DNA of 20,000 nucleotides from IMG/VR virus record IMGVR_UViG_3300032268_001179; one strand, written 5' to 3'. Source of the stretch: an uncultured virus (IMG/VR IMGVR_UViG_3300032268_001179) (taxonomy: Duplodnaviria > Heunggongvirae > Uroviricota > Caudoviricetes). Shown in pieces: positions 1 to 20,000 of this stretch. The translations under genes and the position numbers were made by a program. The notes beneath the pieces were generated by a model, which searched no databases, was not told the DNA's origin, and saw only the letters and a program-made list of their open reading frames with translations. Position 1 is the stretch's first letter. Each line of letters starts with the position of its first letter.

Positions 1-417
1 AATGTGAATTGATAATGTATTTTCTTGGTTTAGTTCGGGATGTTTTTCAAACATTTCATTCACAAATTCTTCTGTTGGTGAAAAAATTTGTCGGATACGA
101 TCAAAGTGTGGACCAAAGTTTTTTGAACTTTGGAAATATCCATCGAATACAGTATCGTGATCTTTTACGAAAACTTCACTGAATTCCCAAGGACCCTCAC
201 TTACTTTTTCAAATCCATCAATATTATCGATAAATTTAAGGTTACGGAAAATATTGTTTAGGTAGTTTTCGGTTTGTCTTCCTTGCATTGGAGTCCAAGA
301 TTTGGGGACAAACACTACTTCTCGGTTGTGTGTAATTCCTTGTGCCACAGCGTGAGCGGCTTGAAACAACTGATTTCCTAGCCCTCCCATTAAGTTACAA
401 GATATAAAATTGCTCAT
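1..417 (-). CDS. Glycosyltransferase family 11 (alpha-1,2-fucosyltransferase-like), 3' end runs off the window
   Basis: Manual translation from ATG at 417, which overlaps the TGA of the upstream GT2 as ATGA: MSNFISCNLMGGLGNQLFQAAHAVAQG...DGYFQSSKNF...TLSIHI. It contains the GT11 motifs GGLGNQ(L)F and GYFQS and what appears to be the start of H(I/V)RRGDY at the window edge. Not in the ORF track because no stop lies inside the window. Confidence 0.88.
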   Translation of the reverse strand, partial: MSNFISCNLMGGLGNQLFQAAHAVAQGITHNREVVFVPKSWTPMQGRQTENYLNNIFRNLKFIDNIDGFEKVSEGPWEFSEVFVKDHDTVFDGYFQSSKNFGPHFDRIRQIFSPTEEFVNEMFEKHPELNQENTLSIHI

Positions 418-1142: not shown

Positions 1143-2299
1143 TGTAAATTTATTACGTATCCTTCAGCGACAGTGCCAGGTTTATAGAATTTTAGTCTAC
1201 CATCGAACTCTTGGCTCAAATCAAAAAGTTGTTTACTGATAGCGTCTATTTCAAAAACATTTAAGTAATATCCCTCATTGAGTAAATCTAAACACAATTT
1301 GAACTGTTGAGATTCTTCTAAAATATCAGTTCCTCTTTTGTAAGTGATGTAATTCATTACAAATGGAACAGTTTTATCGGGATTTTGTTTCATAAAGAAC
1401 TCTTTCAAAAATTTTGCATGTTCTTCATTAAATTTATCAACTGTAAGAGGTAAGTTTAACTCCATTCCTAACTCTTTAGCATAGTGACCTAACGCCCTAT
1501 TATCTCTTGGTAAACAAGGACCTCCGAAGCCGAAACCATATTTTAAATATTTTTTTCCAACTCGGCTATCACCCCCAACGGCATTCAAGACCGAATCAAT
1601 TTCATTACTGAGTTCTGATTTAATCAAAATCTCACCCATCATATTTGCGTAACTGATTTTGGTAGTTAGATAACAGTTTATACCTATTTTTGTTACTTCA
1701 GCCGCTTTACATGACATTACATGGGCGTTCACTGGCGTTGTTTGTATTTTGTTATAAATTTGAATTAGATCATTTGCTAACTCATTATATTCGGTTCCAA
1801 TCAACACGATGTCAGATTCTTCAAGCCCTTTAACAATTTCACCTTGAGCAATAAACTCAGGGTTATATGCAACTTGAATACTGAACATTGAAAGTCTTTG
1901 TTGAACTTGGTCAACATCACCAGGGTTTGTCGTGCATCCTACTATGAATTTCTTATTGAAAATTGAAACTTCTAATTTTGAAGCTTCGATGAAATCATTA
2001 ACAACTTGAAACACGGCACTCGTATCATAATTTCCGTCAGTTGTTGAAGGAGTTGCAACAAATGTGAAAATAATATCGGAGTTTTTTATTATTTCGATGT
2101 TATCGGTTGTTGCAGAAAATCTCTGAACCCCAAATAACATTTGTTGTATAAATGGCTCGTTTGTATTACAAACGTTATGATTTAAATTATATACATAATC
2201 TTCTCTTTTATCTGATACAATAACATCGTATCCTGCTTTTTCACAAAGTAGAGCGAAAGTCAAACCTAAACGACCTGCACCAATAACTCCGATTTTCAT
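1139..2299 (-). CDS. ugd: UDP-glucose/GDP-mannose dehydrogenase family (nucleotide-sugar 6-dehydrogenase)
   Basis: Rossmann motif GAGRLG, 'VATPS', 'YNPEFIAQG', catalytic Lys in 'AEVTKIGIN', catalytic Cys in 'GFGGPCLPRD'. The exact sugar substrate cannot be read from sequence. Confidence 0.9.
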   Translation of the reverse strand: MKIGVIGAGRLGLTFALLCEKAGYDVIVSDKREDYVYNLNHNVCNTNEPFIQQMLFGVQRFSATTDNIEIIKNSDIIFTFVATPSTTDGNYDTSAVFQVVNDFIEASKLEVSIFNKKFIVGCTTNPGDVDQVQQRLSMFSIQVAYNPEFIAQGEIVKGLEESDIVLIGTEYNELANDLIQIYNKIQTTPVNAHVMSCKAAEVTKIGINCYLTTKISYANMMGEILIKSELSNEIDSVLNAVGGDSRVGKKYLKYGFGFGGPCLPRDNRALGHYAKELGMELNLPLTVDKFNEEHAKFLKEFFMKQNPDKTVPFVMNYITYKRGTDILEESQQFKLCLDLLNEGYYLNVFEIDAISKQLFDLSQEFDGRLKFYKPGTVAEGYVINLQ

Positions 2300-3084
2300 A
2301 TTATTTCGTGATATTTCAAATCAAAAATGGGTATTGAAACCATTTTATGTTTATTTTTATTATGAAACTTGTTGTAGGTTTCAATTGCTTTATATTCTTT
2401 TTCGGTGAAGTTTTGTTTTTTTGTTCCGAACTCCATAACCCACTCCATTTCCTCATAGCTTGCCCCAATTTGGGTTTCATCATTCCTATCATCATCCCAT
2501 AAACCATCAGTTGGCTCGGCGTTTACTATATCTTCGTCAACACCTAAGAATTTACCCAAACTTCTTACTTCACTTTTATATAGGTCTGCAATTGGAGAAA
2601 TATCAACACCCCCGTCACCATACTTAGTGTAAAAACCGACTCCAAAATCCTCAACTTTATTACCAGTCCCAACAACAATTCCTCCTTTAGATGTTGCAAT
2701 TTGATATAAAGTTATCATCCGTAACCTTGATTTTGTATTTGCAAAGGCAAGTTCCGAGTCTGCTATTTTATCTATCGTAGATTTAAATTTGTCAAAGGTC
2801 GATGTCAAATCAACGTTCAAACCAGCAACATTATGAGGGTAATCGAAACATAATTGTGATATGTGTTTCTCAGATAATTTTGTATTTTTTGATGAAGAAT
2901 GGATCGGCATTCCAACAACAATAGTAGGGATACCTGTCTCAGCACAAAGAGTTGAGACAACCGCGGAGTCAATTCCTCCCGATACTCCAACTACTAAGCA
3001 TTTAATACCATTATTATTTACGTATGAAGTAATCCAATTTTGAATTTGTTCAGAAAGATTGGAGTAATCTAAAATTCTATTCAT
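2296..3084 (-). CDS. nadE: NH3-dependent NAD+ synthetase
   Basis: PP-loop 'GVSGGIDSAV', 'ANTKSRLRM', 'GTGNKVE', 'GFYTKYGDGGVDISPIADLYKSEV', 'PTDGLW', 'DETQIGASY', 'NKHK'. 262 aa with no glutaminase domain. Confidence 0.95.
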   Translation of the reverse strand: MNRILDYSNLSEQIQNWITSYVNNNGIKCLVVGVSGGIDSAVVSTLCAETGIPTIVVGMPIHSSSKNTKLSEKHISQLCFDYPHNVAGLNVDLTSTFDKFKSTIDKIADSELAFANTKSRLRMITLYQIATSKGGIVVGTGNKVEDFGVGFYTKYGDGGVDISPIADLYKSEVRSLGKFLGVDEDIVNAEPTDGLWDDDRNDETQIGASYEEMEWVMEFGTKKQNFTEKEYKAIETYNKFHNKNKHKMVSIPIFDLKYHEII

Positions 3085-4708
3085 CTAATATTTTTTCGTA
3101 TTGGTTTTTAATTTGTTGAGCCACGTTATGAGAAAAATACTTTTCGATATCTGTTGGCGGATCAAACCTTTCTTTGGATAAAATAAACCCACCTGAGTCA
3201 ACTTTATATATCCAACTTGGTTTTCCACACATCCATCCTTCTATGGTTGTTCTTCCAAGTTGAATTCCTGCGGTTTCTTTACATTTTTGAACGAATGGTT
3301 CAACATTCCAAGTTGGTGGATAATGTTTTACGTGTTCATTCATCAAAATGGTCGGTAGATAATTTGACTTATCTTCTCCTACAATCCAAAGTTCGAGTTT
3401 ATTTTCTCTTGTATACTCTATAAGATCCATTATAGTTTCTCTCCTTAGATAATCAATTGTACCAACAAACAAAATAAAATTTTCTTCTTTAGTGTTTTTT
3501 GGTTTGAATTTCTCAGAATCAATTGGATTGTAAATTACCTCAATCATATCTTCAGGAATTTCAAATTTATCGATAATATGATCTTTTATTTCGGGTCTTA
3601 TTGCGATATATTTTTTGATTGATTCGTGTTTAATTGGATCTTCAAGTTCAATAACTTCAGAGTGAATTGAATATATCTTATCTATCTCAGGATAAAATTG
3701 AATCATTCTTTCGGCGACTGGTTTATGTTGCATGTGAATAATATCATATTTTACCTCCGAAACACGATACATCACGTTGGGTTGAGAAGGTTGAAATCCT
3801 TTATCTGTATTTAATCCCCACTTACCATCTCCCAATTTGAAACCTGGTGACTCTTCAAATGACAAACATTTGATACCTTGTTTCTTTGCCATATCCGTGA
3901 GAGGTCCTCCGATTTGCGATAAAACAGTAACTTCACAATTTTGTTTCAATAAACTTTTCGCTAATTCATATACATAAAGTTCTGAACCTGTGAAAGTTTT
4001 AAAAAATAAACAACTGATTAAAACTTTAATTTTTTGATCTTTATTAAAAGGGAGTTTTATCGGAAGATGATCCTTATATTTTTCTTCGAAAATTTTTCGA
4101 TTGTCTTCCCATTGTTGATTAGTTTGACCGATTGATTTATGAGTCAAACGAATATTTGTGATAACACCAACTTTTACTTTTTCTAAATGATTTTCGAAAC
4201 AAAAAGGAATGTCATAAAAGTGAAACCCTTTGAATTCTTCATTAAAAAATTTCTTAATTCTTTTTTTATGTAGAGCGATAAAAAGCCCGTCAACAATAAT
4301 TGTTTGAATAATACCGTTACCCACAGAATCAGAATATTTTGATTCCCATTTTTTACCCTCACTTTCGTGGTTTACAATACCAACCATTTTTTTTCGGTCT
4401 TCCCACCACATACCACTTGAAGGCATATTTGTGGTACCAGCAAGTCCCAAGATTCCAAAGTCAGTTTTTTCGAAATGCTTGATTATTTTACTATACCAAG
4501 ATGTGGTATCAAAGTAGATATCGTCGTGACATAGGATGACAATGTCTGTAGTCGACTCAGAAATAATTTCATTGTATACCTGAGTCAATGATTTCTGTCC
4601 GTTATTAACTTTTTCAATAACGTTAATTTTTTTGAAACCTGAACTTTTTTTAAGATACTCTATAAACTCAGGATTGGATTCTCTTGTTGAATAACCTATT
4701 GTAACCAT
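3077..4708 (-). CDS. Two-domain glycosyltransferase: N-terminal GT-A-like domain fused to C-terminal GT-B (GT4-like) domain
   Basis: N-half: 'SLTQVYNEII...VILCHDDIYF...GILGLAG...VDGLFIA...GFHFYDIPFC'. C-half (from about aa 226): 'KVLISCLFFKTFTGSELYVYELAKSL', 'VIYNPID...F', 'ILFVG', 'LGRTTIEGWMCGKP'. Confidence 0.8.
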   Translation of the reverse strand: MVTIGYSTRESNPEFIEYLKKSSGFKKINVIEKVNNGQKSLTQVYNEIISESTTDIVILCHDDIYFDTTSWYSKIIKHFEKTDFGILGLAGTTNMPSSGMWWEDRKKMVGIVNHESEGKKWESKYSDSVGNGIIQTIIVDGLFIALHKKRIKKFFNEEFKGFHFYDIPFCFENHLEKVKVGVITNIRLTHKSIGQTNQQWEDNRKIFEEKYKDHLPIKLPFNKDQKIKVLISCLFFKTFTGSELYVYELAKSLLKQNCEVTVLSQIGGPLTDMAKKQGIKCLSFEESPGFKLGDGKWGLNTDKGFQPSQPNVMYRVSEVKYDIIHMQHKPVAERMIQFYPEIDKIYSIHSEVIELEDPIKHESIKKYIAIRPEIKDHIIDKFEIPEDMIEVIYNPIDSEKFKPKNTKEENFILFVGTIDYLRRETIMDLIEYTRENKLELWIVGEDKSNYLPTILMNEHVKHYPPTWNVEPFVQKCKETAGIQLGRTTIEGWMCGKPSWIYKVDSGGFILSKERFDPPTDIEKYFSHNVAQQIKNQYEKILDE

Positions 4709-5325
4709 TATATACCAGTACTACCAAATCCTTTATCTCCACGATCTTTATCACCAACTTTATCAACAACGTCGAAATCAACATATTTTCCGTTGACTAC
4801 GGGGCATAATACTGCTTGAGCAACTTTCATTCCTTTTGAAATAGTCACCGAATAATTGTTAGTATTGAAAACAATAACTTGAATTTCACCTACGTAACCT
4901 GAATCAACTGTTCCAGGTGTGTTCAATACAGTAAGACCCATATTGATAGCCAAACCACTTTTAGGTCTCACTTGGATTTCATATTCCTCGGGGATAGATA
5001 GTTTCAACCCTGTAGGGATAAGAGCTCGTCCAAATGCTGGTAACGTATAATCTATTCTTGAATAGAGGTCGAATCCTGAATCACTCGGATATGCGTAAGT
5101 TGGAACTTTTGTATCTTCGTAAAGTAGTTCAACTCCAACTTTTTTGGTTTTGAGGAATGACATATTTGCCTCAGTTATTTCATCCATAGAAAACCCGAAC
5201 ATTTGTTCGAGTTCAGACATATAATCTTCCTCAGGTTCAACTCCCGACTCTTTCTTTATTTGATTAAATGTATCTTGAATTTGTTTCCAAATATCTTGAT
5301 CAATATTTCCGTTTGTATTTTCCAT
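4708..5325 (-). CDS. dut: Trimeric dUTP diphosphatase with about 60-aa acidic N-terminal extension
   Basis: All five motifs present: SGFDL, RPKSGL, GTVDSGYVGEI, KVAQAV, RGDKGFGSTG. Confidence 0.95.
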   Translation of the reverse strand: MENTNGNIDQDIWKQIQDTFNQIKKESGVEPEEDYMSELEQMFGFSMDEITEANMSFLKTKKVGVELLYEDTKVPTYAYPSDSGFDLYSRIDYTLPAFGRALIPTGLKLSIPEEYEIQVRPKSGLAINMGLTVLNTPGTVDSGYVGEIQVIVFNTNNYSVTISKGMKVAQAVLCPVVNGKYVDFDVVDKVGDKDRGDKGFGSTGI

Positions 5326-6026
5326 TATTTTAAACTTGTCAATTTTTTTATTACTTCTATCAATACCAAAACATCTTTTTCACAATATTCAACTATACCT
5401 TTGATGTCTTTATTTATCCAATAAGCCTCATGAACTTTGTTTCCAGTAACTTCCATATTTTTAGAAGATTCTACACCCATAGAAACACACATCAATTCTA
5501 ATGACGCAATTGTTCCATAACCACCATATTGCCAAAGTTCTTTTGTATCTAACGCTTTGATCTCCCATGGCTTTGTATCATGGCCAGGTAATATTTTTGG
5601 AGGTAACAGACCGTTGACAATCATTCGTTTTGCCAACATTGGAATATCAAATCCTTTGACGTTATGCCCACACAAGAAAAATCCTAATTCACCAACTCTA
5701 CGTAATAGTTTTTGAACATCTTGTAACAAATCTTTTTCATTTTCGTTACTAAATGATTGAATCTTTGTTTCACCTTTTTCTGTAACAAAGGCAACACTCA
5801 CACAAGCAATTCTTGCAAACTCAGGAACTAATGCGGATCTATTAACAAACATTTGCCCAACTGGTTTATCGGCGTCCTCAGGAAATCTTTTTTGAAACCA
5901 ATCAACATAATTTTCAAATACGAAAGAAAGTTCAAGATTGGATTTTTTCAAAGACTCCCAATCAGATTGTGCTCCTACGGTTTCAATATCAATAAAAAGT
6001 AGTTTTTCTAATGGTATGTTTATCAT
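5325..6026 (-). CDS. DEDDy 3'-5' exonuclease (PolB-exonuclease-like stand-alone family)
   Basis: ExoI 'FIDIET', ExoII 'GHNVKGFDIP', ExoIII 'YCEKDV'. Confidence 0.88.
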   Translation of the reverse strand: MINIPLEKLLFIDIETVGAQSDWESLKKSNLELSFVFENYVDWFQKRFPEDADKPVGQMFVNRSALVPEFARIACVSVAFVTEKGETKIQSFSNENEKDLLQDVQKLLRRVGELGFFLCGHNVKGFDIPMLAKRMIVNGLLPPKILPGHDTKPWEIKALDTKELWQYGGYGTIASLELMCVSMGVESSKNMEVTGNKVHEAYWINKDIKGIVEYCEKDVLVLIEVIKKLTSLK

Positions 6027-7243
6027 GATTTATTTGCAATGTCTTTATAAAATTGTTTTCTATCACTAGTTACATTATTTAAGTCATACTTGTCTTTAAC
6101 TGTTTCATATAATCTCTCACCCATATCTTTTACAAGATTTGGATTCTTAACAAGTTTTTCAATGAACTTTGCCCAATCAGCGTGATTTCTAGCTTCGTTG
6201 ATTAAGATAGCATTTCCATCTACAAAATTACCATTTTCCATACAATGTTTTAGGTCGATGGTATAAGGACCTATGTTGGATGCAATTATTGCCTTTTTGT
6301 AGAATCCAGCTTCAATCACTTTCAGTTGAGATTTCATTCTGTTGAACATTGTGTTTTTGATTGGAGCTAATGAAACATCAAATTTCGAATAATTTTTAGC
6401 ATAACCTGTTACAGGTTTAGTCCACACTCTCAAATAAGATTCATCCATTTCATTTGGAAAATTTTCTTGAGTGTATTTCAAAAGATGATTTTTATAATTC
6501 TCGGAAATAATTTTGAAATTTTGAGTAAATATTTTTTCGTATTCAGCCCAAACAGTTTCTGATGGTAAAATATTTCTTTTAGTTTGCTCTTTAGTTTGAG
6601 CATTGATTTCTGTTACAGTCCCTCTTGTATCAAAACCGCATAGGACATACTGAACTTTATCTTTCAATCCTGTAATTTTGGAAAATCCTGAATCTAATAA
6701 TTGGATGTCATGTAAGTGAGATGAACCTCCTAGCCACCCAACTCTAACTCTGTCCGACTCTTCAGTTTTTTCTTTGAATTGAGCCTCGTTTGGATTTATT
6801 GCATTTGGAAATACAAAAACATTTTTGTTGTATTTTTTGATTTCATCTGCAAAGATAGTTGTGGTTGTTGTTACGTATTTTGCGACTTTGAGATTTGCAA
6901 CAATTTTTTCATTGATTTTGTTAACACGAATGATATCGTGAATTGGGTGCTCTTTACCTGGCATCCAATAGTCATCAATATCACAAACTGTGACAACTCC
7001 TAATGAATTCAACATTTGAATCAATCTGTTTGCCTTATCAAAATCTTGACCGATACTTCTGTGAAAGGCAACAATCTGATATTGAGTCCAAAAGTTAATG
7101 TCCTCATAAGGTGGTTCATAAACAATATCCACATGAAATTCTTCAGGGTATTGATTTTGTAAAAAAATGTGAGGATCTACGGAACGAAATTTCCCAACGC
7201 CACTACGATCTGAGGGCACGACTAAAACTTTAACTTTTGACAT
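6023..7243 (-). CDS. GT-B fold glycosyltransferase (GT4-like, phage type)
   Basis: 'SGVGKFRSVDPH', 'DIDDYW', 'VFPNAI', 'VGWLGGSSHLHD', 'DVSLAPI..TMFNRMKSQLKVIEAG..KKAIIASNIGPY' donor-binding region. Confidence 0.85.
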   Translation of the reverse strand: MSKVKVLVVPSDRSGVGKFRSVDPHIFLQNQYPEEFHVDIVYEPPYEDINFWTQYQIVAFHRSIGQDFDKANRLIQMLNSLGVVTVCDIDDYWMPGKEHPIHDIIRVNKINEKIVANLKVAKYVTTTTTIFADEIKKYNKNVFVFPNAINPNEAQFKEKTEESDRVRVGWLGGSSHLHDIQLLDSGFSKITGLKDKVQYVLCGFDTRGTVTEINAQTKEQTKRNILPSETVWAEYEKIFTQNFKIISENYKNHLLKYTQENFPNEMDESYLRVWTKPVTGYAKNYSKFDVSLAPIKNTMFNRMKSQLKVIEAGFYKKAIIASNIGPYTIDLKHCMENGNFVDGNAILINEARNHADWAKFIEKLVKNPNLVKDMGERLYETVKDKYDLNNVTSDRKQFYKDIANKS

Positions 7244-9930: not shown

Positions 9931-12900
9931 ATGGCATATCAAAATATAAATCAGTATAATTTTAGGCGTTGGGGTATTAAACCCGTAAACGAAATCACAG
10001 ACATCTGTTTGGCTTCTGATGAAAAAGATTATAATCAGGAGGTTATTTTTTCCCCATTATTGATTGGAGAAAATGATGGTAATAGAATGCCATTCAAATT
10101 TGATTTAAAAAATTCGGCAACCACTTTATGCCAATCAGGGACTTGTTCTTTTGATAATGATGTAATTGTTTCTGAAAACTATTGGAATCCTGATGAAATA
10201 GATCCAAATTTTTGCCCTAAAGTTACAGACCTTTGCGATGTTGGTTTGACAGGAATTGACAATGGACTTGTAAAACGCATGTCAGGGGAAACTATTCAAA
10301 TTACAACTGGTTTATATACTTCGAATACCGACAAATACAGTAGATACAAATATGATAGGAGAATGAAAATGCACCCTATCACAGGATTTACTACCACACA
10401 AAATAGATTATGGAATGATGACTCATATGATTATAATCTGAGTTATACAACTGATGGTGGTTCAGTTGGTAATTTTGCCAGATTGAATGGAGGATTTTTT
10501 CAAGGGTTTTATAAAATACCTGGATATGATTATCAAATTTTCCCACAACGAGTATCACTTGGATGGACATCTGAGTTTATGCTCAGATATAGATGGACTG
10601 GTGATACAAACGTTGGATTGAACAATCGATACCCAAATAATAAAGGAACATTCTTTTATATGGGGGCCCGTGCTGAGAATAAGTTTTACCATTATGCTGA
10701 TGGGGAACCAAAACAAGACACAGGATACACACGAGTAACTTCAGGTTTAACTTGTATGCACACTTGTGGGTGCGCTAGTTCAGCAAACACGGCTTCGACT
10801 TGTTTACAAGTATATCAAATTTCAGGAGGGACATCGAAAAATTGTTCTTGCGGATGTAGTTGTGAATGTCAAGTGAGTGCACAATACCCTGAAAAAGATC
10901 CGCTTTATGATGGAGTCTCGAATGGACTTTCTTTACGGTTAAGTGGTGACACAGGTAATCCGAGGCTTTGTATTAAAACATATAGGATTACTGGAGGATG
11001 TGAGACAACAGGAACTTGTCAAACGGGATTAACTTATCACACGGGAACATCGGTAACGGAATGGTGTTCTACACGAGGTATATTTGATGAGTGTAAAAAT
11101 ACACCATATATAAATTTAGAACATTGGGTTCAAATTGATGCCGTATTCCAAAGAAAAGAATGGTTAGACACTTGTGATCTGTATGAAAAAGGTGGATTAG
11201 GTTTACTTGTGGACACAATTTTTACCGCAACTCCAGCTAATAATAGTGTGAGTTTGATTGAACCTCCATTGACTCACGAACAACCTTATGATCCAGCAAC
11301 CACTGAAATTGTCACATTCAATGACAATTGGACTGAAGAACAAATATATCGACTTGGGACTTTAAAACTATTCGTCAACGGAAAGTTGTTTATGGTTGTA
11401 AACAATTTCGAAGAAATAATACCAAGATTACTTAATGTTGAACGAGAAAAACAAATTGGTGTTGGATACAACATATCGTTAGGGGGAGGAACCCAAGGAC
11501 TTAAGGATAACTTGACATTCTCGGGTGGATGTCCTGAGTCGGTGAGTGGAATTACATACCAACAAGATCCTGAGTGTTTAACTACTCACGATTTGGATAA
11601 CACCATTTATTCTGGATTGACTACACACATCAAATTAGAAGAATATTTTGGTGGAAGTATGATTGGTGACGTGAGTGCGTTTAGAATGTATACTGAGCCG
11701 TTAGATGCTTCTCAGATTTGGCACAATTTTAATTTGTTGAAAACAAGATACAATTTACTTGATCCAAAATGTCCAAATTGTGCTATTATCGTTCCTGCAA
11801 ACGATTTAACTTATGAGTTGATTGAAGCGACTCCAACTCCGACTCCAACACCTACTAATACTCCAACTCAGACTTTAACACCTACTAACACCGTAACTCC
11901 AACTAACACAGGAACACCAACTCCAACTAACACTCCTTCTGTAACCCCAACTAACACCCAAACTCCAACTAATACTCAAACTGTAACCAAAACTCCAACT
12001 AATACTGCGACACCAACTAGCACTCCTTCTGTAACCCCAACTAATACTCAAACCGCAACCAAAACTCCTACACCAACTCAGACTCCGACTAATACAGAAA
12101 CTCCGACTCAAACAGTAACACCAACAAATACTGAAACTCCAACACAGACACCAACTAATACGCCAACTAATACTGAAACACCTACTCAGACTCCGACTGA
12201 GACAGAGACTCCTACACCAACTCAGACTCCGACTAATACAGAAACTCCGACTCAAACAGTAACACCAACAAATACTGAAACTCCAACACAGACTAATACT
12301 GAAACACCAACCAACACGCCAACTCCAACTCCAGCAACATTACCAACAGTTACTACTGATGGATATGCAAATTTAAGTAATGGTAGTGCTCAAATAACAG
12401 GAACAATAGTGAGTAATGGAGGTTCAACAATAACACAAAGAGGTATTGTTTGGAGTACTTCTCCAAATCCTACTATATCTAATAATGTAGTGTCTGATGG
12501 TTCAGGTAACCCTGACGCATTAGGACAATTCATACACACCTATGTCATACCGAACCCATTTATTGTCGTATATGTAAGAATATACGCGACTAATGCAGTT
12601 GGTACATCGTATGGTGATCAAGTTAGTTTTACTATGCCTTGTTTCATTAAAGGAACTAAAATAACCTTAGCAAGCGGACTTAGAAAGAACATAGAAGATA
12701 TATCTTATGAAGATTCTCTTTTAGTTTGGAACTTTGATGAAGGAAGATTTGATTCTGCAAACCCTATTTGGATAATGACTCCAGTACTTACTCAATATGT
12801 AAATATTCTCTTTAGTGATGGTTCGAAGCTTGGAATATCTGGACACTTAAATCATGACGGAGGTCACCGTATCTTTAATTTAGATAAGGGAGAATTTACT

Positions 12901-13314
12901 TACGCCATACCTAATGAACATAGCCCTATAGGAACTCGTACATTTAATGATAAAGGGGACATAGTAACAATAGTAGGTAAAGAAGAATCTACCGAGGTTG
13001 AAGAAATTTATAACGTAGTAACAAACCGTCATCTCAACATATTTGCAGAAGGTATTCTTACTTCACGAAGATTAAACAATCTTTATCCTATCGTGGATAT
13101 GAAGTTTATTAAAGACGAAAGGTCTATCACTTTAATAGAAGAATTCAAAGAAGTTCCGATTGAATATTATGAAGGTTTAAGATTAGGGGAACAACCACTA
13201 GCGACTAACTCAGAAGGATTCTTAGTGAAAACACCAGGAGAATTGGCTTATACACTTCCTACTGTAAGTGAATTATCACAATGGACAGTAGAATTTATAA
13301 AGAAAAAGTTGTAG
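9931..13314 (+). CDS. Large putative virion structural protein: Cys-rich / LamG(ConA)-like region, Pro-Thr linker, FN3-like domain, C-terminal Hint domain plus tail
   Basis: LamG-like elements 'HWVQIDAVF', 'LKLFVNGKL', '[24 protein letters not shown]'. PT repeats at aa ~634-801. FN3-like 'LPTVTT...[25 protein letters not shown]...[15 protein letters not shown]'. Hint begins '[13 protein letters not shown]' at aa 904. Confidence 0.8.
11830..12333 (+). repeat. Pro-Thr (TPTNT[Q/E]TP) low-complexity coding repeat including an exact 86-bp duplication
   Basis: Encodes [13 protein letters not shown]... The segment 12064-12149 is repeated exactly at 12208-12293 (offset 144). Confidence 0.92.
12640..13065 (+). 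other. Hint (Hedgehog/intein-like) autoprocessing domain inside the 1127-aa protein
   Basis: Block A '[20 protein letters not shown]...D.LLVWNF', block B His in 'GGHRIF' (12865), block F/G '[20 protein letters not shown]'. No terminal His-Asn and no endonuclease domain. Confidence 0.85.
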
Positions 13315-13321
13315 CCTACTT

Positions 13322-13780
13322 ATGAAGATTCTCTTTCTTGACCATCAAGGAGTAATATACTTAGGGAACGCGATTTGGCCAGATGGTAAACCAATACTCT
13401 TAGATTTTGACCAAGGGGCTGTTAATATTCTTAATGAAATAATAAGAGAGGTAGATTGTGAAATAGTTGTTTCTTCTGACTGGAAAACGTGGGTAGATTT
13501 ACCTAAAATGAAATCCTTTTATATTAAACAGGGAATAATAAAACCTCCAATTGGATATACACCAATAACTAATATTAAGCATTTAGATGATATTGCTTAC
13601 TTAAGATCTAAAGAGATAAGAAAGTGGTTAGATTTTACGGAGAATATTACATCTTGGACTGCAATAGACGACCTTGATATGAGAAAACACCTATCAAACT
13701 TTGTTTGGATTAAGGACTCAGAAAAGGGTATTAAGGAAGAAGGAATAAAGAAAAGGATAATAGAATATTTATTAGAATAA
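13322..13780 (+). CDS. HAD-superfamily protein (Swiss-army-knife RNA-repair-associated HAD type)
   Basis: Motif I 'ILFLDHQGVI', motif II 'IVVSSDWK', 'IGYTP', 'RSKEIRKWL', motif IV 'WTAIDDLDM'. Confidence 0.82.
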   Translation: MKILFLDHQGVIYLGNAIWPDGKPILLDFDQGAVNILNEIIREVDCEIVVSSDWKTWVDLPKMKSFYIKQGIIKPPIGYTPITNIKHLDDIAYLRSKEIRKWLDFTENITSWTAIDDLDMRKHLSNFVWIKDSEKGIKEEGIKKRIIEYLLE

Positions 13781-13807: not shown

Positions 13808-14371
13808 ATGCCCTGTAACTATTATCAAATAATAAACTACAATAGTGTTGAAAATGGATATTATCGATATACAGGTTGTACTAGTATTGTAAGTGTCGGA
13901 ACCATAACACCATTAAACACGGAGTATGTTTGTGCTGAAGATTTGGTAAAAGAAAGTTATAGTGGGCCGTTGGACATTACAAACATAGGACTATGTCCAA
14001 CGGCTACACCAACTCCGTCTATCACTCCATCAGTAACTCCAACCGTAAGTATAACTCCTACATCAATCACACAAACTCCAACACCGACTTATTCTCCAAC
14101 ACCATCAGTTACTCCATCGGCAGTTTATAAAAGAAATTTACGTGCTGGTGGATGGTATCAAAATGTTTGTCAATCGGTAAATCAAATCGCAAATCCTGCA
14201 AACGCTACGGTATTCACAACGATACCGTTTCACGAACTTGAGATCGGTGACAGAGTTTATGGAAACAGAGAGTTGACAATTCCACCAGTCGGTAACTTCT
14301 TTACATTCTCTGATGGTGCAATTTTCATTCAATTAAGTGGAACTTTGATAATAAACAAAGGCATCTGTTAA
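13808..14371 (+). CDS. Pro/Thr-linker protein with two small Cys-containing domains, putative virion decoration protein
   Basis: N-domain with four Cys (MPCNYY...YTGC...YVCA...GLC), a [12 protein letters not shown] linker, and C-domain 'QNVC...LEIGDRVY...[10 protein letters not shown]'. Confidence 0.7.
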
Positions 14372-14384
14372 AATATATATAGGT

Positions 14385-15548
14385 ATGGCAATTGGAGTAA
14401 GAATATTAAGTAATAATTTGAGTGGTCTAACAACCAACGTAACCTATTTACCAGAATCTGGAGGAACGATTGATTTAGGAACTCAAGTATTTCCATTCGA
14501 ATATTTGTCAGATTATTATTGGGGAACTTACAATTGCTATGTTCCAACATATGCAACAATGTATCCTTTAGTAATCTCGGGACCACCAGCAACTCCAACT
14601 AACACTCCAACAAATACTGCAACTCCGACAAACACTCCAAGTGTAACTCCAACTAATACTCAAACTCCGAGTGTTACTCCTACAAATACGCAAACTCCAA
14701 GTGTAACACCAACTAATACTCAAACTCCAAGTATTACTCCTACAAACACGCAAACACCAAGTACCACTCCTACAAATACACCGACAACAAGTATTACCGC
14801 ATCGGAAACTCCTACGCCAACTGTAACTCCAACAACTACCCAAACACCGAGTGTAACACCGAGTCAAACTCCAACTATAAGTCTTACTCCGACAAATACT
14901 ATAACTCCGACAAATACACCGACTGTCACACCGTCTACTACTCCTCCAAATCCTACTCCAACACCTACACCTACTCAGACACAATTACCATTGGGAGCAT
15001 ATTTGTTTATCGAACCAACATCGGGAGCGACAGCAATAGGTCAATGGCAAACAAGTCAAGGTGTATATTTCTATGGGTTTACGAACATGAGTCAGCCAAG
15101 CTCAGCATTCCAATATTTCCAAGATGATATTGAAGCATATGTTTCATTTAGCGGATGGTCATCAGGTACATTCCCAACCATAATCCGAGCAACAGTCCCT
15201 CAAACTAGTGGTGGAGATGACAGTTTTGGACAGCCAATATATGCTTACAATTTTGTAACAACACAAGTGAATTCATCCGTGTGTTCGGGTGAGGCTTGGT
15301 ATACATGGTTTATACCAACATCATTAACAAATAATGGTGTTCAGAATCAGATTGGATTATCGTTGGCAGGACCTGGAGATACGGTTGCAATCACAATGAA
15401 TAGCACCATTTACGCAAACACATATACTTCAACAGGAGGAACATTACCTCCTGCGACATATCGAGTCTACACAACTTTCCCTGACCCTGAGTTCCAAATC
15501 ACAAACATTGGTAATATTTATTTCAGAGGTAACACAGTAGTACCGTAA
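14385..15548 (+). CDS. Pro/Thr-rich putative virion structural protein
   Basis: 387 aa: about 65-aa N-domain, about 130-aa PT repeat, aromatic/Thr-rich beta-type C-domain. Its stop is 3 nt before the next ATG. Confidence 0.75.
14592..14985 (+). repeat. 30-bp-period coding repeat ([10 protein letters not shown])n within a PT linker
   Basis: Units such as ccaagtgtaactccaactaatactcaaact recur from about 14637 to 14780. Alternate units are more alike (60-bp super-period). Confidence 0.9.
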
Positions 15549-15551
15549 CAT

Positions 15552-18500
15552 ATGTCGAATTTACCGTATAAAAATCCAATATCCCCCGTACAAGTTAGTG
15601 GTTCTCAAACCGTTCCGAGAAGAAAAAATTTCGGTGTAACTTATAGTGTTTCCAACACGGGTGGTTATATGGAGGTGTATAATTTGACAGACTTGATCTA
15701 TCAAATTCCAAATTTCGGACAAATACAATTCACGGGAAATACAATTCCAATCAATTTTTTTAAGGGTAGTGGCACAACGTTTTCACAAAATGTATTGACG
15801 CTAAATTCCGATAACATTTCTTCAGGTAGAAGAAGGTTGGGAATGTTGGTATATGTTTATGAAACTGACGAAGTATACCAATATTATATTCCAAACTACA
15901 ATAGTTTGTGGAACGCAGCAACTGGGTCCACAGGAATTGGAGGACCAACTGTAGTTCAATCAGATTTTGGTACTACTGTTAGGGGTAATTCACCCGCAGG
16001 TAATTTATTTATAAGTGCATGGACTGGTTCTACAATCGAAGGTGTAAGTGGTGTTACAAAAGAAAATGCTCGTTGGAGGGTGTTCACTGTATCAGGATCA
16101 TCTCAAGGGAGTTCGGGATCTAGTGGTACTTCAGGTACAAGCGGTAGTTCAGGAATTAATGGAACATCGGGAACTTCTGGTGTAAATGGTTCAAGCGGAA
16201 CATCTGGTCTTAACGGAACAAATGGTTCATCTGGAACTAGTGGAGTATCAGGAACAGGAGGAACCTCAGGAACTAGCGGAACTTCGGGTACTAGCGGTAG
16301 TTCAGGAATAAACGGAACATCTGGAACTTCAGGTGTTAATGGTACTAGCGGTACATCAGGTATCAATGGAACATCAGGAACTAGCGGTATATCTGGTACG
16401 GGAGGAACGAGTGGAACTTCAGGAACATCTGGTACTAGCGGTAGTTCGGGTACTAATGGCACTTCAGGTGTTAATGGAACAAGCGGAACATCTGGATTAA
16501 ATGGAACAAATGGTACTTCAGGGACAAGTGGAATATCAGGCACAGGTGGAACAAGTGGAACTTCAGGAATAAGTGGTAGTAGTGGTAGTTCGGGAACTAA
16601 TGGTACTTCAGGTGTTAACGGAACAAGTGGCACTTCAGGTGTCAATGGAACAAGTGGCACCTCTGGATTAAATGGAACGAATGGTACTTCAGGTACTAGC
16701 GGTAGTTCGGGAACCTCAGGTGTTAGTGGTAGTTCGGGGACAAGTGGTACTTCAGGTGTTAATGGAACAAGTGGTACTTCAGGTGTTAACGGAACAAGTG
16801 GTACTTCAGGCGTTAATGGAACAAGTGGCACATCTGGAGTAAATGGAACTTCAGGTTCAAGCGGTAGTTCGGGAACAAGTGGTACATCTGGAATAAATGG
16901 AACAAGTGGGACTAACGGTACATCAGGGACATCTGGTACTTCGGGTGTCAACGGAACAAGTGGAACATCTGGAATAAACGGTACATCAGGAACAAGTGGA
17001 GTTTCGGGATCGGGAGGGACATCAGGAACCTCAGGAAGTAGTGGGACATCAGGAACAAGTGGAGTGTCAGGAACTTCTGGTACTAACGGTACCTCAGGTA
17101 CAAGTGGAATATCAGGAAGTAATGGTACATCAGGAACAAGTGGACTGTCAGGAACTAGCGGAACATCAGGAACAAGTGGACTGTCAGGAACTAGTGGGAC
17201 TTCGGGAATCAACGGGACCTCAGGGACAAGTGGAATAAATGGCACGAGTGGAACTTCAGGTTTATCTGGAACTAGTGGTACTTCAGGAAGTAGCGGAACA
17301 TCAGGAACGTCTGGAATAGATGGAGTAATAGGTAGTAGTGGTTCATCAGGTACGAGTGGGACTTCAGGTTTATCTGGAACTAATGGTACATCGGGGACTA
17401 GCGGCACTTCAGGAATAAGTGGAACTAACGGCACATCAGGGACAAGCGGAACTTCTGGTGTAGATGGAGTAATAGGTAGTAGTGGTTCATCAGGTACGAG
17501 TGGAACATCAGGGACATCTGGTATTTCAGGAACAAGCGGGACTTCGGGAACAAGCGGAACTTCTGGTTTGGATGGAGTAATAGGTAGTAGTGGTTCATCT
17601 GGCACATCAGGTATATCAGGAACATCTGGTACTTCAGGGACTAGTGGAACATCTGGTACTTCAGGAATAAGTGGGACTAATGGAACATCAGGTACATCTG
17701 GTACTTCAGGGACTAGTGCAACATCAGGGACAAGTGGTAGTTCGGGAACAAGCGGAACTTCTGGCACAGGTGGATCTTCAGGAACTAGTGGCACATCAGG
17801 GATAAGTGGAACTTCAGGGACTAGCGGAAGTTCTGGTACAGGCGGATCTTCAGGAACTAGTGGAACTTCAGGGACTAGCGGTACTTCAGGTACTGGTGGT
17901 TCTTCTGGCACATCAGGTATATCAGGAACTAATGGAACATCTGGTACTTCAGGAACAAGTGGAACGTCTGGAACTAGTGGTTCTTCAGGAACAAGTGGGA
18001 CTAATGGAACATCTGGTACGTCAGGTATATCAGGAACTAATGGAACTTCTGGTACTTCAGGAACAAGTGGGACTAATGGAACATCTGGTACGTCAGGAAC
18101 AAGCGGAACTTCTGGCACAAGTGGAACATCTGGTATATCAGGGACTAATGGAACATCTGGCACTTCAGGAACAAGTGGGACATCAGGAACAAATGGGACA
18201 TCGGGTATAAGTGGAACTTCAGGTACAAGTGGGACTTCAGGGACTAATGGTACATCAGGAACATCTGGCACTTCAGGTACAAGTGGAACAAATGGGTCTT
18301 CAGGAACTAGTGGAACATCAGGAAGTAGTGGAATTTCACCTACAGGTTTGGTTGCATCAAATTACGTCGCTAAAGGTTATAAAGGAGGTAGTTCTCAAAC
18401 TGTAACAAACGGGGTAGATGCTGTGGTTACGTTTGTTGATGACTTTGATCCTCAAGGTTGGATTACCTCGAATAGGTTCCAACCAACGATTGCGGGGTAT

Positions 18501-20000
18501 TACCATATTCAAGTTGCGGTATGGTGGGATGCAGGTTCGGTTACAACGAATCAAACTAATATTCAACTTAGAAAAAATGGAACCACTCAAATTGCAATCC
18601 AACAAACTCAAATTTTAACAGGTGCTGGATACGGTCAAGAAATTGATATTATAGTATATTTTAACGGTTCAACAGATTATGTTGAAGTTACTGCATTTAC
18701 TGGTAATCCAACCTCTCAAAATATAAATGGTGCTAATTCAGGTACTTGGATTACAGGGTCTTTGATCGTTGGTGGTGGAACATCAGGAACTAACGGTTCT
18801 TCGGGAACTAGCGGTGTATCAGGAACAAGTGGCACTTCAGGAACTAGCGGTTCATCAGGAACAAGCGGAACTAACGGTACATCAGGAACTAATGGTACAT
18901 CAGGAACTAGCGGAACTTCAGGAACTAGTGGGACTAATGGTACATCAGGAACAAGTGGTTCTTCAGGTACAAATGGGACCTCAGGAACAAGTGGAACTTC
19001 TGGTACAAATGGGACCTCAGGAACAAGTGGAACTTCTGGTACAGGTGGTTCTTCAGGAACTTCTGGTACTTCAGGAACAAGCGGAACTTCAGGTACAAAT
19101 GGGACCTCAGGAACAAGTGGTTCTTCAGGAACTAGTGGCACATCAGGAACAAGCGGAACTTCTGGAACTAACGGCACATCAGGAACAAGTGGCACTTCAG
19201 GAACTTCAGGTACAGATGGTTCTTCAGGAACTAGCGGAACATCAGGAACTAACGGTACATCAGGAACAAGTGGAACTTCTGGTACAGGTGGTTCTTCAGG
19301 AATTAGTGGCACTTCAGGAACAAGTGGAACTTCTGGTACAGATGGTTCTTCAGGAACTAGTGGAACGTCAGGTACAAGTGGGACTTCTGGTACAGGTGGT
19401 TCTTCAGGAACTAGCGGAACATCAGGAACTAGTGGCACATCAGGGACTAGTGGGACTAACGGTACATCAGGAACAAGTGGAACGTCAGGAACTAGCGGGA
19501 CTTCAGGAACTAGCGGAACGTCAGGTACTAGTGGTACGTCAGGTACTAACGGAACTTCAGGCACATCGGGAACAAGTGGAACATCAGGTGTTTCTCCTTC
19601 AGGTGACCCATTAGTTGAAATTGCCGTTAGCGGTACTCAGAATAATGTTAATAAAACATTTACATTAGCCAATGAACCAACAGGAATAACACAACAGTTT
19701 TTCTTGAATGGACAATTATTAGTTGAAGGCGATGATTATACTATAACAGGTACGACAATACAATTTGTACCTGCTCGACCCGCGCCAAGCCCAACAGATA
19801 AACTTATTTTTTATGGTAGTATAGGATTAACTGTAAGTAGTTCAGGTACATCGGGTACTAGCGGAATTTCAGGTACGTCAGGTTCAAGTGGTAGTAGTGG
19901 AACCTCAGGTACATCAGGTAGTTCGGGAACAAATGGCTCATCAGGAACTAGTGGTTCGTCAGGGACATCTGGAAGTTCGGGAACTAGTGGATCTTCAGGA
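15552..20000 (+). CDS. Giant Gly-X-Y (Gly-Thr-Ser) repeat protein, putative fibre, with C1q-like and small beta domains (3' partial, >1483 aa)
   Basis: ATG at 15552 (MSNLPYKNPISPVQVSGSQTV...ISSGRRRLGMLVYVYETDEVYQY...ARWRVF). I checked the frame at 16071, 17700, 18300, 18720, 19560, 19800 and 19998 and it is open to the window end. Missing from the ORF track because it has no stop in the window. Confidence 0.92.
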   Translation, partial: MSNLPYKNPISPVQVSGSQTVPRRKNFGVTYSVSNTGGYMEVYNLTDLIYQIPNFGQIQFTGNTIPINFFKGSGTTFSQNVLTLNSDNISSGRRRLGMLVYVYETDEVYQYYIPNYNSLWNAATGSTGIGGPTVVQSDFGTTVRGNSPAGNLFISAWTGSTIEGVSGVTKENARWRVFTVSGSSQGSSGSSGTSGTSGSSGINGTSGTSGVNGSSGTSGLNGTNGSSGTSGVSGTGGTSGTSGTSGTSGSSGINGTSGTSGVNGTSGTSGINGTSGTSGISGTGGTSGTSGTSGTSGSSGTNGTSGVNGTSGTSGLNGTNGTSGTSGISGTGGTSGTSGISGSSGSSGTNGTSGVNGTSGTSGVNGTSGTSGLNGTNGTSGTSGSSGTSGVSGSSGTSGTSGVNGTSGTSGVNGTSGTSGVNGTSGTSGVNGTSGSSGSSGTSGTSGINGTSGTNGTSGTSGTSGVNGTSGTSGINGTSGTSGVSGSGGTSGTSGSSGTSGTSGVSGTSGTNGTSGTSGISGSNGTSGTSGLSGTSGTSGTSGLSGTSGTSGINGTSGTSGINGTSGTSGLSGTSGTSGSSGTSGTSGIDGVIGSSGSSGTSGTSGLSGTNGTSGTSGTSGISGTNGTSGTSGTSGVDGVIGSSGSSGTSGTSGTSGISGTSGTSGTSGTSGLDGVIGSSGSSGTSGISGTSGTSGTSGTSGTSGISGTNGTSGTSGTSGTSATSGTSGSSGTSGTSGTGGSSGTSGTSGISGTSGTSGSSGTGGSSGTSGTSGTSGTSGTGGSSGTSGISGTNGTSGTSGTSGTSGTSGSSGTSGTNGTSGTSGISGTNGTSGTSGTSGTNGTSGTSGTSGTSGTSGTSGISGTNGTSGTSGTSGTSGTNGTSGISGTSGTSGTSGTNGTSGTSGTSGTSGTNGSSGTSGTSGSSGISPTGLVASNYVAKGYKGGSSQTVTNGVDAVVTFVDDFDPQGWITSNRFQPTIAGYYHIQVAVWWDAGSVTTNQTNIQLRKNGTTQIAIQQTQILTGAGYGQEIDIIVYFNGSTDYVEVTAFTGNPTSQNINGANSGTWITGSLIVGGGTSGTNGSSGTSGVSGTSGTSGTSGSSGTSGTNGTSGTNGTSGTSGTSGTSGTNGTSGTSGSSGTNGTSGTSGTSGTNGTSGTSGTSGTGGSSGTSGTSGTSGTSGTNGTSGTSGSSGTSGTSGTSGTSGTNGTSGTSGTSGTSGTDGSSGTSGTSGTNGTSGTSGTSGTGGSSGISGTSGTSGTSGTDGSSGTSGTSGTSGTSGTGGSSGTSGTSGTSGTSGTSGTNGTSGTSGTSGTSGTSGTSGTSGTSGTSGTNGTSGTSGTSGTSGVSPSGDPLVEIAVSGTQNNVNKTFTLANEPTGITQQFFLNGQLLVEGDDYTITGTTIQFVPARPAPSPTDKLIFYGSIGLTVSSSGTSGTSGISGTSGSSGSSGTSGTSGSSGTNGSSGTSGSSGTSGSSGTSGSSG
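16107..18332 (+). repeat. Gly-X-Y block 1: about 247 in-register triplets (GTS, GSS, GTN, GVN, GIS...)
   Basis: 9-bp period. Gly codons at 16107 and 18330 are 247x9 nt apart. The only break I found is Gly->Ala (GCA) at 17718. Confidence 0.95.
18333..18770 (+). other. C1q/TNF-like (trimeric jelly-roll) domain within the Gly-X-Y protein
   Basis: Translation includes 'SQTVTNGVDAVVTFVDDFDPQGWITSNRFQPTIAGYYHIQVAVWW...QLRKNG...IVYFNGSTDYVEVTAF...TWITGSLI', matching the C1q pattern F..p..G.Y.f ... l.kNg ... l..gD.v.v ... f.G.li. Confidence 0.75.
18777..19589 (+). repeat. Gly-X-Y block 2: about 90 uninterrupted triplets
   Basis: Gly codons at 18777 and 19587 are 90x9 nt apart. The antisense ORF shows Pro at every third residue throughout. 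Confidence 0.95.
19590..19844 (+). other. Small (~80 aa) beta-rich module of the type repeated in phage tail/baseplate proteins
   Basis: 'SGTQNNVNKTFTLANEP...QFFLNGQLLVEGDDYTITGTTIQF..APSPTDKLIFY' fits the recurrent pattern FTL..P...v.lNG..l..g.DYt.sg.ti.F..aP...D.i. Confidence 0.6.
19845..20000 (+). repeat. Gly-X-Y block 3 (continues beyond the window)
   Basis: GTSGTSGISGTSGSSGSSG... in the same frame up to position 20000. Confidence 0.9.

Follow-up and report, generated by a model that had tools for sequence, protein, structure and literature searches.

The open reading frame at the 3′ end of the analysed window, a 20,000-nt stretch of uncultured virus DNA, probably encodes a homotrimeric, segmented collagen-like protein of the tail-fibre class from an uncultured freshwater jumbo myophage, a reading to which we assign a probability of roughly 65%. 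Globular domains alternate along the predicted chain with three blocks of Gly-X-Y triplets, and the relevant features of the window are the following:

15552..20000, plus strand: fibre gene, open at its 3′ end, with 1483 stop-free codons
15552..16106, plus strand: N-terminal domain of 185 aa, a putative virion-attachment module on the basis of homologue searches
16107..18338, plus strand: collagen-like block 1 of 248 Gly-X-Y triplets, with one Gly to Ala replacement at 17718-17720
18339..18776, plus strand: internal C1q/TNF-like jelly-roll domain of 146 aa, predicted with AF2 and Foldseek
18777..19595, plus strand: collagen-like block 2 of 91 triplets (aa 1076-1348), by repeat count and composition
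19596..19844, plus strand: domain C, a non-collagen domain of 83 aa, with an 84% identical copy within the orthologous L108/L109 fibre
19845..20000, plus strand: collagen-like block 3 of at least 18 triplets (aa 1432-1483), running into the window end
14385..15548, plus strand: upstream partner gene of 387 aa, with a Thr-Pro-rich linker and a conserved C-terminal domain, directly preceding the fibre gene
6023..7243, minus strand: glycosyltransferase (phrog_7162), not TibC-like, syntenic with the fibre locus in the clade of the window

The ATG of the fibre gene is located 4 nt past the stop codon of the upstream partner gene, and the C-terminal ~185 amino acids of this partner are encoded directly 5′ of the N-domain gene in 38/101 loci, representing 20/40 distinct N-domain loci. 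A preliminary description of this DNA had presented the repeat protein as hidden from the open reading frame track; the frame does lie on the plus strand and is open at the window end, and the term means nothing beyond that. An ESM Atlas entry comprises exactly the same 1483 amino acids, suggesting that its source contig probably also ends there, and a search of viral and metagenome contigs for exact sequence patterns gave no extension of the cut gene, whereas relatives of domain C led to the L108/L109 orthologue.

The collagen-like character of the blocks is evident from both register and composition. Block 1 comprises an uninterrupted run of 179 triplets (aa 186-722) and, after a single 'ATS' triplet (GCA, nt 17718-17720), a further 68 triplets (aa 726-929) in unchanged register. 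The translation thus contains 247 Gly in 248 triplets and bears out the earlier count of about 247 in-register triplets with one Gly to Ala change. The Pfam Collagen family (PF01391) matches the ORF far above its gathering threshold (437.3 bits against 27.2 bits; e-value: 3e-134) and is the only Pfam family matched at E ≤ 0.01, with no match to C1q or BclA_C. Block 1 (744 aa) consists of 254 Gly, 227 Ser, 169 Thr, 39 Asn, 25 Ile, 18 Val, 8 Leu, 3 Asp and 1 Ala, and block 2 of 94 Gly, 84 Ser, 79 Thr, 11 Asn, 2 Val, 2 Asp and 1 Ile, while block 3 is made up of Ser, Gly, Thr, Ile and Asn only. The 1069 collagen residues of the three blocks include five Asp but lack Pro, Lys, Arg, Glu, Gln, His and aromatic residues altogether, in agreement with the composition first described. 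The usual stabilisers of bacterial and phage collagens, namely Pro in the X position and/or charge pairs, which are typical without being strictly defining, are as such absent from the blocks.

The two variable positions are strictly differentiated. Among the triplet types of block 1, GTS predominates (144 copies), followed by GSS (29), GTN (18), GIS (14), GVN (10) and others, with X occupied by 169 Thr, 31 Ser, 22 Ile, 18 Val and 8 Leu, and Y by 196 Ser, 39 Asn, 7 Gly, 3 Asp and 3 Ile. All 42 Asn and Asp residues are found in Y, while 48/51 Ile, Val and Leu residues are found in X. The register is also maintained in the family, where 73 distinct ORFs show only 62 short interruptions in 20,046 triplets; 27 of these interruptions consist of one triplet with its Gly replaced, the recurrent 'ATS' being an example. 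This register and the X/Y differentiation uphold the earlier argument that the repeat is not a mere linker. Among relatives, the longest unbroken array counts 644 triplets and single chains exceed 800, which is longer than fibrillar animal collagen with its approximately 338 triplets.

The preliminary description had labelled the 146-aa domain as C1q, which is correct at the fold level. On the AF2 model (pLDDT 93) it folds as a C1q/TNF jelly roll of ten strands, as do the heads of C1QL1-3, the TNF ligands, the central spike knob of phage phi812 (9eul) and the tail of cyanophage A4 (9k09). Foldseek matches the domain to the phi812, A4 and C1QL1-3 structures with a probability of 1.0 (TM: 0.68-0.76), C1QL1 and the phi812 knob giving TM scores of 0.72-0.76 and e-values of 4e-8 to 9e-9. 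Sequence identity to the C1q/TNF heads is, however, only 14-20%, and a sequence search of the PDB returned only a spurious match to a designed protein. The domain was identified in 34 IMG/VR loci and in 7742 representatives at E ≤ 1e-3. Here it does not form a C-terminal head, although C-terminal copies are found in remoter relatives; it is internal, and in relatives it is chained up to eight times. Collagen is present on both sides in 34/34 family ORFs in which both sides are in view, and approaches the domain to within 1-4 residues in 32 of these. This close flanking of a C1q/TNF jelly roll by collagen supports a trimeric fibre. Relatives with this domain carry ordinary GPQ, GPT or GAT collagen, with 25% Pro in X and 37% Thr and 23% Gln in Y among the best 150 representatives, and 31% Pro in the L083 locus. 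Such swapping of ordinary collagen into a similar architecture speaks for a collagen-type structure.

For domain C, no match to Pfam, PHROG or PDB sequences was found, and DUF4183 was rejected as its identity, the Atlas score of only 0.84 being below the useful range. None of the three non-collagen domains matches a PHROG at E ≤ 1e-3, and the 'tail fiber' PHROG matches of the protein rest solely on its collagen part. Homologues of the N-terminal domain are present in 67 IMG/VR loci (45-63% amino acid identity) and in 782 longer proteins with varied distal parts (E ≤ 1e-3), including forms with DUF285 and with Peptidase_S74. Four of the five relatives encode a single copy per genome, with distal parts of 504-2730 aa. 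A conserved N-terminal anchor that occurs once per genome and is joined to variable distal modules is the arrangement of tail fibres and receptor-binding proteins. The fold of this domain (AF2 pLDDT 74) has no match in the PDB by Foldseek at E ≤ 1e-3, while the sole return from BFVD is an uncharacterised phage protein. The collagen XV trimerisation domain was considered as its fold and set aside as too weak a match (VIA wide best Z: 3.9 over 48 residues). Neither the N-terminal domain, the C1q-like domain nor the flanking DNA has a match in 50,697 GenBank phage records, and no cultured relative was found among these.

The stalk of BclA is O-glycosylated. BclA, F-BclA and L-BclA, of the Bacillus exosporium and endospore appendages, resemble the fibre in combining a collagen-like stalk with a trimeric domain of the C1q/TNF fold and, in the published account available to us, in being rich in Thr and polymorphic in length by triplets (PMC12357932). 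The 91 triplets of F-BclA measured 78 nm, against a predicted 77 nm (PMC12357932). In BclA, however, Pro occupies X and Thr occupies Y of a GPT repeat and the C1q domain is C-terminal, whereas the fibre is Pro-free, with Thr in X, Ser in Y and an internal C1q-like domain. The EPclA and EPclB proteins of E. coli O157:H7 prophages likewise possess a Gly-X-Y stalk of variable length between non-collagen phage-fibre domains, and their role as trimeric fibres has similarly been deduced from the phage context (PMC3368898). As far as that account describes it, EPclA is short and Pro-rich in X, while the fibre has at least 357 Pro-free, near-uncharged triplets along with C1q-like nodes inside the chain, and no Pfam or PHROG family is common to its non-collagen domains and the EPcl proteins.

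The repeat composition had initially been regarded as unprecedented, which was an overstatement. The Burkholderia collagen-like protein Bucl3 is a published example of GTS/GSS triplets, 38-63 in number, and for the Pro-free, neutral (GAS)19 of Bucl8 the CD spectrum shows a triple-helix signal at 25 °C, which is no longer present at 50 °C (PMC4565658, PMC7682875). Both share with the fibre uncharged, Pro-free triplets of Gly, a small residue and Ser, with Bucl3 having the very GTS/GSS triplets of the fibre. They differ, on the published descriptions available, in being proteins of the bacterial membrane or surface whose non-collagen domains are unrelated and whose arrays are 4-6 times shorter, and the triple-helix data concern (GAS)19 rather than GTS itself (PMC4565658, PMC7682875). 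In the openly accessible literature, no description of Pro-free GTS collagens in phages was found.

The absence of Pro and charge pairs from the blocks weighs against a triple helix, and GTS has a low triple-helix propensity. The collagen regions of the Bucl proteins are mostly placed at 20-35 °C by the Persikov algorithm (PMC4565658). An alternative, which we consider unlikely, is that the Gly-Thr-Ser tracts constitute a flexible, probably O-glycosylated, mucin-like tether, an extended PPII-rich coil between trimeric nodes in which three chains lie side by side without forming a helix. Apart from the missing Pro and charge pairs and the low stability predicted for such sequences (PMC4565658), this would suit tracts rich in Thr and Ser hydroxyls, with glycosyltransferase genes nearby and adjacent genes encoding Thr-Pro linkers of the kind common in glycosylated spacers. 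Gly at every third residue is, however, no requirement of a disordered linker, while the family register is broken only 62 times in 20,046 triplets, with Ala as the tolerated replacement, X and Y are strictly different, and ordinary Pro-containing collagen is found in the equivalent architecture of relatives. Furthermore, the Pro-rich linkers elsewhere in the locus indicate that the absence of Pro is specific to the fibre protein.

A triple helix dependent on glycosylation, as put forward in the preliminary description, is at most a possibility. Four glycosyltransferase genes are encoded in the window, none of which is of the TibC/BAHT type. TIGR04414 (TibC/Aah-type, BAHT heptosyltransferase) was found neither among the eight window proteins nor by tblastn, the region 3′ of the fibre gene lying outside the window. 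The syntenic glycosyltransferase at 6023..7243 accompanies only 5/22 distinct collagen-bearing relatives, and might possibly be linked to the fibre. In the relative G001, a TIGR04414-family gene (290 bits) is located directly beside the collagen gene, an arrangement that would also accord with a glycosylated tether, and homologues of this gene occur in three other lineages, including those of L068-70 and L079-84.

Relatives are found on records of 297-430 kb that bear direct terminal repeats. All four complete records (4/4) encode TerL, and the sheath family is matched in 4/5 relatives, above the cut-off in two; these matches settle the tailed-phage origin. The NCLDV capsid family was found in 0/5 relatives, but the search was also blank in control genomes and as such excludes nothing. 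SprB and DUF285 modules together with a GC content of 33% point weakly to a host among the Bacteroidota. In L108, the syntenic orthologue nearest to the window, the flanking genes are 75-90% identical to those of the window and the fibre is complete, a protein of 1782 aa that ends in a Peptidase_S74 domain (33.4 bits; cut-off: 22), followed by two further genes with collagen and S74 and by a third collagen gene, which is cut off. Peptidase_S74 is a hallmark of tail fibres and spikes. It is also found in P0056, and among the 120 proteins most similar to block 2, 41 carry the endosialidase-type family (PF13884). L108 ends as fibres and spikes of this type do; in the window the gene is truncated, and no S74 is seen there for that reason. 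The S74 chaperone is a known route to C-terminal trimer nucleation, although the substrates known to us are triple β-helices and fibres rather than 200-nm collagen rods. The TerL and sheath genes of the relatives and the S74 end of L108 support the reading as a predicted virion protein of the tail-fibre class in a large phage.

A collagen-like trimeric fibre could also be attached to the capsid or neck, as a head fibre or 'hair', rather than to the baseplate or tail. No baseplate or sheath gene is found within the window, and in relatives the sheath gene is located ~35 kb from the fibre locus; one neighbour gene in L058 matches the Hoc-like Ig family, and gp12 of SPP1 is described as a collagen-like capsid binder (PMC7602432). 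With the orthologue ending in Peptidase_S74 within a run of collagen and S74 genes, and with the best fold matches of the C1q-like domain being phage tail or spike parts, we regard a position on the head as quite improbable.

Bundles of the snow-flea antifreeze type are built from short Gly-rich PPII segments joined by regular turns. The preliminary description had offered a PPII bundle as an alternative. An antiparallel polyglycine-II/PPII bundle, or another new fold, possibly ice-binding, is in formal terms compatible with a Gly in every third position and small residues around it, and the habitat is cold fresh water. We nevertheless abandon it as very unlikely, since 179 and 91 triplets run unbroken without a periodic turn motif, Gly makes up 34% of block 1 and occupies just 7/248 Y positions, the repeats lie 1-4 residues from parallel trimer domains, and homologues carry GPT and GPQ collagen.

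The fibre ORF is, judging from its coding pattern, a real gene rather than a product of slippage or assembly. Block 1 spells its 248 triplets in 103 different 9-nt sequences, Ser in the repeats is encoded by TCN as well as AGY codons, and the longest exact DNA repeat in the whole ORF is 43 nt, which together with the X/Y differentiation argues for selection at the protein level. Contigs of four freshwater studies reproduce every junction between domains and collagen, in pieces with 0-9 differences, and one independent freshwater contig contains a 9-nt in-frame length variant. No public contig spanning the whole array was found, and parts for which no piece is listed are no evidence of absence. 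Contigs often end within such arrays, and 18/22 distinct collagen-bearing N-domain ORFs end at contig ends, but an assembly artefact or non-coding simple repeat is scarcely credible where the N-terminal domain, the C1q-like domain and domain C share one frame with the repeats, synonymous diversity is high and near-identical pieces come from four independent studies.

For the collagen-like tail-fibre protein, we infer the following arrangement. The conserved N-terminal domain would anchor the fibre to the virion, and the Gly-Thr-Ser rods would form collagen-type triple helices and so provide a spacer that is long, thin, neutral and rich in hydroxyl groups. With a rise of 0.286 nm per residue, the length of block 1 would come to ~213 nm and that of block 2 to ~78 nm, giving at least 0.3 µm in the part seen, if triple-helical. 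The internal nodes, namely the C1q/TNF-like jelly roll and the 83-aa domain, would keep the three chains in register, and the globular nodes may bind ligands as well. By orthology, the missing distal end would comprise a region for receptor binding as well as an intramolecular chaperone of the self-cleaving Peptidase_S74 type, which would nucleate trimer folding from the C-terminus. The rods may in addition be glycosylated.

The stability of collagen is usually attributed to imino acids, to charge pairs or to Thr that is glycosylated in the Y position. The arrays considered here are natural sequences of 248-644 triplets with none of these three, having Thr in X and Ser in Y, and selection has maintained the Pro-free repeat across hundreds of phage genes. 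Should it fold, it would probe the minimal requirements of a triple helix. We tentatively suggest, as a proposal that may well prove incorrect, that freshwater jumbo phages possess a widespread class of collagens forming stable helices hundreds of nm long without Pro, hydroxyproline or charge pairs, held by Thr/Ser hydroxyl-water networks, low ambient temperature, registration nodes (C1q-like domains and the S74 chaperone) and, in some lineages, TibC-type phage-encoded O-glycosylation. If true, the collagen fold would have a new regime of stabilisation, and the fibres would be a long, neutral biomaterial of a new kind. Practical value will stay limited as long as no member has been expressed and no host brought into culture. 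The fibre belongs to a widespread and experimentally unstudied class of phage fibres, which recurs across metagenomes, and sits in a fast-shuffling receptor-binding locus. Fibres of at least 0.3 µm would greatly widen the capture radius of lake phages.

The fibre gene opens with an ATG at 15552 (+ strand), continues for 1,483 codons without a stop up to the end of the window and matches Pfam Collagen (437 bits).

Layout of the fibre ORF (15552-20000, + strand)
First 185 aa, + strand: N-terminal domain (N-domain)
aa 186-929: block 1, 248 Gly-X-Y triplets in a single register (179, one 'ATS', then 68)
aa 930-1075: globular C1q-like domain, 146 aa
aa 1076-1348: block 2, 91 triplets
aa 1349-1431: domain C, 83 aa
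After domain C to the window end: block 3, at least 18 triplets

The 'ATS' triplet of block 1 begins with a GCA codon at 17718-17720. Pro, Lys, Arg, Glu, Gln, His and aromatic residues are absent from the collagen blocks, which contain five Asp in all. The X position is occupied in the order T>S>I,V,L and the Y position in the order S>N>G,D, with 42/42 of the Asn/Asp residues of block 1 at Y and 48/51 of its Ile/Val/Leu residues at X. The numerical statements of the preliminary description on this repeat proved correct throughout.

Block 1 is encoded by 103 distinct 9-nt versions for its 248 triplets, Ser codons at Y are of the TCN as well as the AGY type, exact DNA repeats within the ORF reach 43 nt at most, and TRF detects diverged periodicities only (56-90% matches). 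Furthermore, the N-domain, C1q-like domain and domain C share the frame of the repeats, and all three are conserved elsewhere. The fibre ORF is a real gene under protein-level selection rather than an artefact. Four independent studies of fresh water yielded Logan contigs that match pieces of the locus with 0-9 differences; together they cover the three kinds of domain/collagen junction, a single contig has a 9-nt in-frame deletion at 19560, and none crosses the whole array. An Atlas entry represents the exact 1,483-aa sequence and is equally truncated, suggesting that the source contig probably breaks at the window end.

Upstream of the fibre gene, three genes encode Thr-Pro-rich linkers ([13 protein letters not shown]; about 170 aa at the longest), and each matches phrog_15511 (unknown function) via the linker.

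Thr-Pro-linker genes
9931-13314, + strand
13808-14371, + strand
14385-15548, + strand

These linkers look like O-glycosylation-type spacers and, as Pro is freely used just upstream in the same locus, its lack in the Gly-X-Y blocks is block-specific. In the 1,127-aa product of the first gene, the C-terminal 327 aa (12331-13314, +) form a Cys-initiated segment that lies beyond the linker and a further small domain. It matches Hint weakly, below the cut-off (PF05203; 17 bits; E 0.0056), and may give this structural protein a self-processing, Hint-like terminus. A HAD_SAK_2 gene (RNA-repair 'Swiss army knife' HAD; 13322-13780, +) is located between the structural genes; its position in the relative L108 is occupied by a 432-aa collagen-like gene.

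That the repeat is a mere disordered linker is poorly compatible with its register, as the preliminary description had argued. Across 73 distinct ORFs of the family, 20,046 triplets contain 62 short interruptions. The register is kept in 28 of these, 27 of them consisting of one triplet in which Gly is replaced (usually 'ATS', the form found in the window), and shifted in 34, of which 23 are one-residue-short 'G-X-G' steps (L054 provides three examples). Non-triplet indels in homologues, which if frequent were named beforehand as counting against a structured repeat, are thus rare (34 shifts per 20,046 triplets), and the register is far stricter than a disordered linker would require.

The N-domain was found on 782 longer proteins (E<=1e-3) and is single-copy in 4/5 genomes, in ORFs of 504 to 2,730 aa. 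It is followed by Gly-Thr-Ser (GTS) collagen in 22/40 distinct loci and by no collagen in 15/40, the other three being too short to tell; further distal parts include DUF285, a beta-helix-like region and Peptidase_S74, a tail-fibre chaperone domain (S74; PF13884). In 20/40 distinct loci, the gene immediately preceding the N-domain gene encodes the C-terminal domain of the 14385-15548 product. In the closest syntenic relative (L108/L109; flanking genes 75-90% identical), the orthologue is complete at 1,782 aa: the N-domain precedes collagen runs of 34, 14 and 60 triplets, domain C (84% identical) separates these from runs of 53 and 26, and a stretch of about 650 aa, with S74 (33.4 bits) at its end, closes the protein. 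Its gene is followed by two collagen+S74 genes and one collagen gene running off the locus end, and the locus has the appearance of a tail-fibre gene cluster. Among the best 120 block-2-like proteins, 112 contain at least 50 triplets, 90 of these with <1% Pro, and 41/120 carry PF13884; Pro-free GTS composition is, on these counts, common in uncultured phages.

The C1q-like domain is predicted to fold into ten strands (pLDDT 93), and Foldseek matches it to the phi812 central spike knob, a cyanophage A4 tail protein, C1QL1-3, TNF ligands and BxpB/ExsFA (probability 1.0; TM 0.6-0.76), while no family fitted in a Pfam search. Within the window's family every copy is internal and flanked by collagen on either side, at a distance of 1-4 residues in nearly all cases. 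In the wider family (7,742 representatives; E<=1e-3) it may also end the protein or form chains of up to eight copies, and the collagen joined to it is ordinary GPT, GPQ or GAT, suggesting that the GTS tracts take the structural position of genuine collagen. Three metagenomic proteins (P0123, P0126 and P0182) contain 5-8 tandem copies with no collagen between them; the jelly roll can evidently stack head to tail along a fibre. Further relatives show GTQ/GIQ and even GYS/GFS/GWS flavours, and aromatic collagens of up to 164 unbroken triplets occur in relatives sharing the C1q-like node.

Aromatic collagen in relatives (Gly-Tyr-Ser, Gly-Phe-Ser, Gly-Trp-Ser or Gly-Ile-Ser)
L090, 7268-13015
L092, 5489-12796
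L100, 333-2852

Tyr occupies X in 204/385 triplets of L090, and L093 and L099 combine Tyr or Phe at X with Thr or Val at Y.

The window genes are tightly packed and overlapping, and sugar-nucleotide and NAD metabolism genes adjoin the fibre locus.

Operon-like run
1-7243, - strand: genes with 4-nt start/stop overlaps, encoding dUTPase, PolB-type 3'-5' exonuclease, NAD synthase, nucleotide-sugar (UDP-glucose type) dehydrogenase and four glycosyltransferases (two GT2-type, one two-domain GT2_5 + GT4, one phrog_7162)

No window protein matches the TibC-type heptosyltransferase profile (TIGR04414) or, by sequence, solved TibC, and the syntenic glycosyltransferase is present at only 5/22 collagen loci. 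A TIGR04414 match (290 bits) is encoded in the relative genome G001, convergent to and just downstream of a 2,730-aa, 644-triplet GTS collagen gene; this 979-aa ORF (locus L106, G001:31017-35018; also L005 18214-20508, -) combines a TibC/Aah-family heptosyltransferase region with a C-terminal part matching the phage methyltransferase family phrog_8156 (7.5e-7). L068-70 and L079-84 have homologues in the vicinity of their GTS collagen genes, and TIGR04414 has no match in four relatives whose N-domain protein lacks collagen. As such, glycosylation is plausible for the class and possible for this gene.

IMG/VR relatives comprise 67 loci for the N-domain and 34 for the C1q-like domain, on contigs of up to 430 kb. 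In five records examined, TerL is present in 4/4 complete ones and a sheath family in 4/5 (above cut-off in two); the NCLDV capsid family is found in 0/5, but control genomes are equally silent. The relatives are tailed jumbo phages of freshwater origin, and no GenBank phage matches the flanking DNA, N-domain or C1q-like domain. SprB repeats and DUF285 modules are present in relatives, on neighbouring proteins or on those that bear the N-domain (L044 6481-8613, +; P0097), and, together with 33% GC, weakly hint at a Bacteroidota host.

We suggest, with a probability of about two in three, that the product is a collagen-like tail fibre, homotrimeric and built in segments. Its trimers would be nucleated by the C-terminal S74 chaperone (known from the orthologue only) and also by internal C1q-like nodes, and the neutral, hydroxyl-rich rods would provide reach; a triple helix would give block 1 a length of about 213 nm and block 2 one of about 78 nm. 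A measured length of 78 nm is given in PMC12357932 for the F-BclA stalk, whose 91 triplets equal those of block 2. Pro-free neutral triplets have precedent in the 38-63 GTS/GSS triplets of Burkholderia Bucl3 and in (GAS)19, for which CD at 25 °C indicates a triple helix (PMC4565658 and PMC7682875). Lake water would be compatible with the melting points of 20-35 °C predicted for sequences of this kind. The preliminary observation is confirmed and its interpretation, a glycosylation-dependent helix or a polyproline-II-type bundle, is supported in part, with the collagen-like fibre as the best reading, given the register, C1q-like node and phage relatives. Phage collagen-like tail fibres are known, and no experimental characterisation of Pro-free GTS collagen fibres was found in the literature on phages; new here are the extreme Pro-free Thr/Ser composition and the internal C1q-like nodes, in a class of phage collagen fibre that is widespread.
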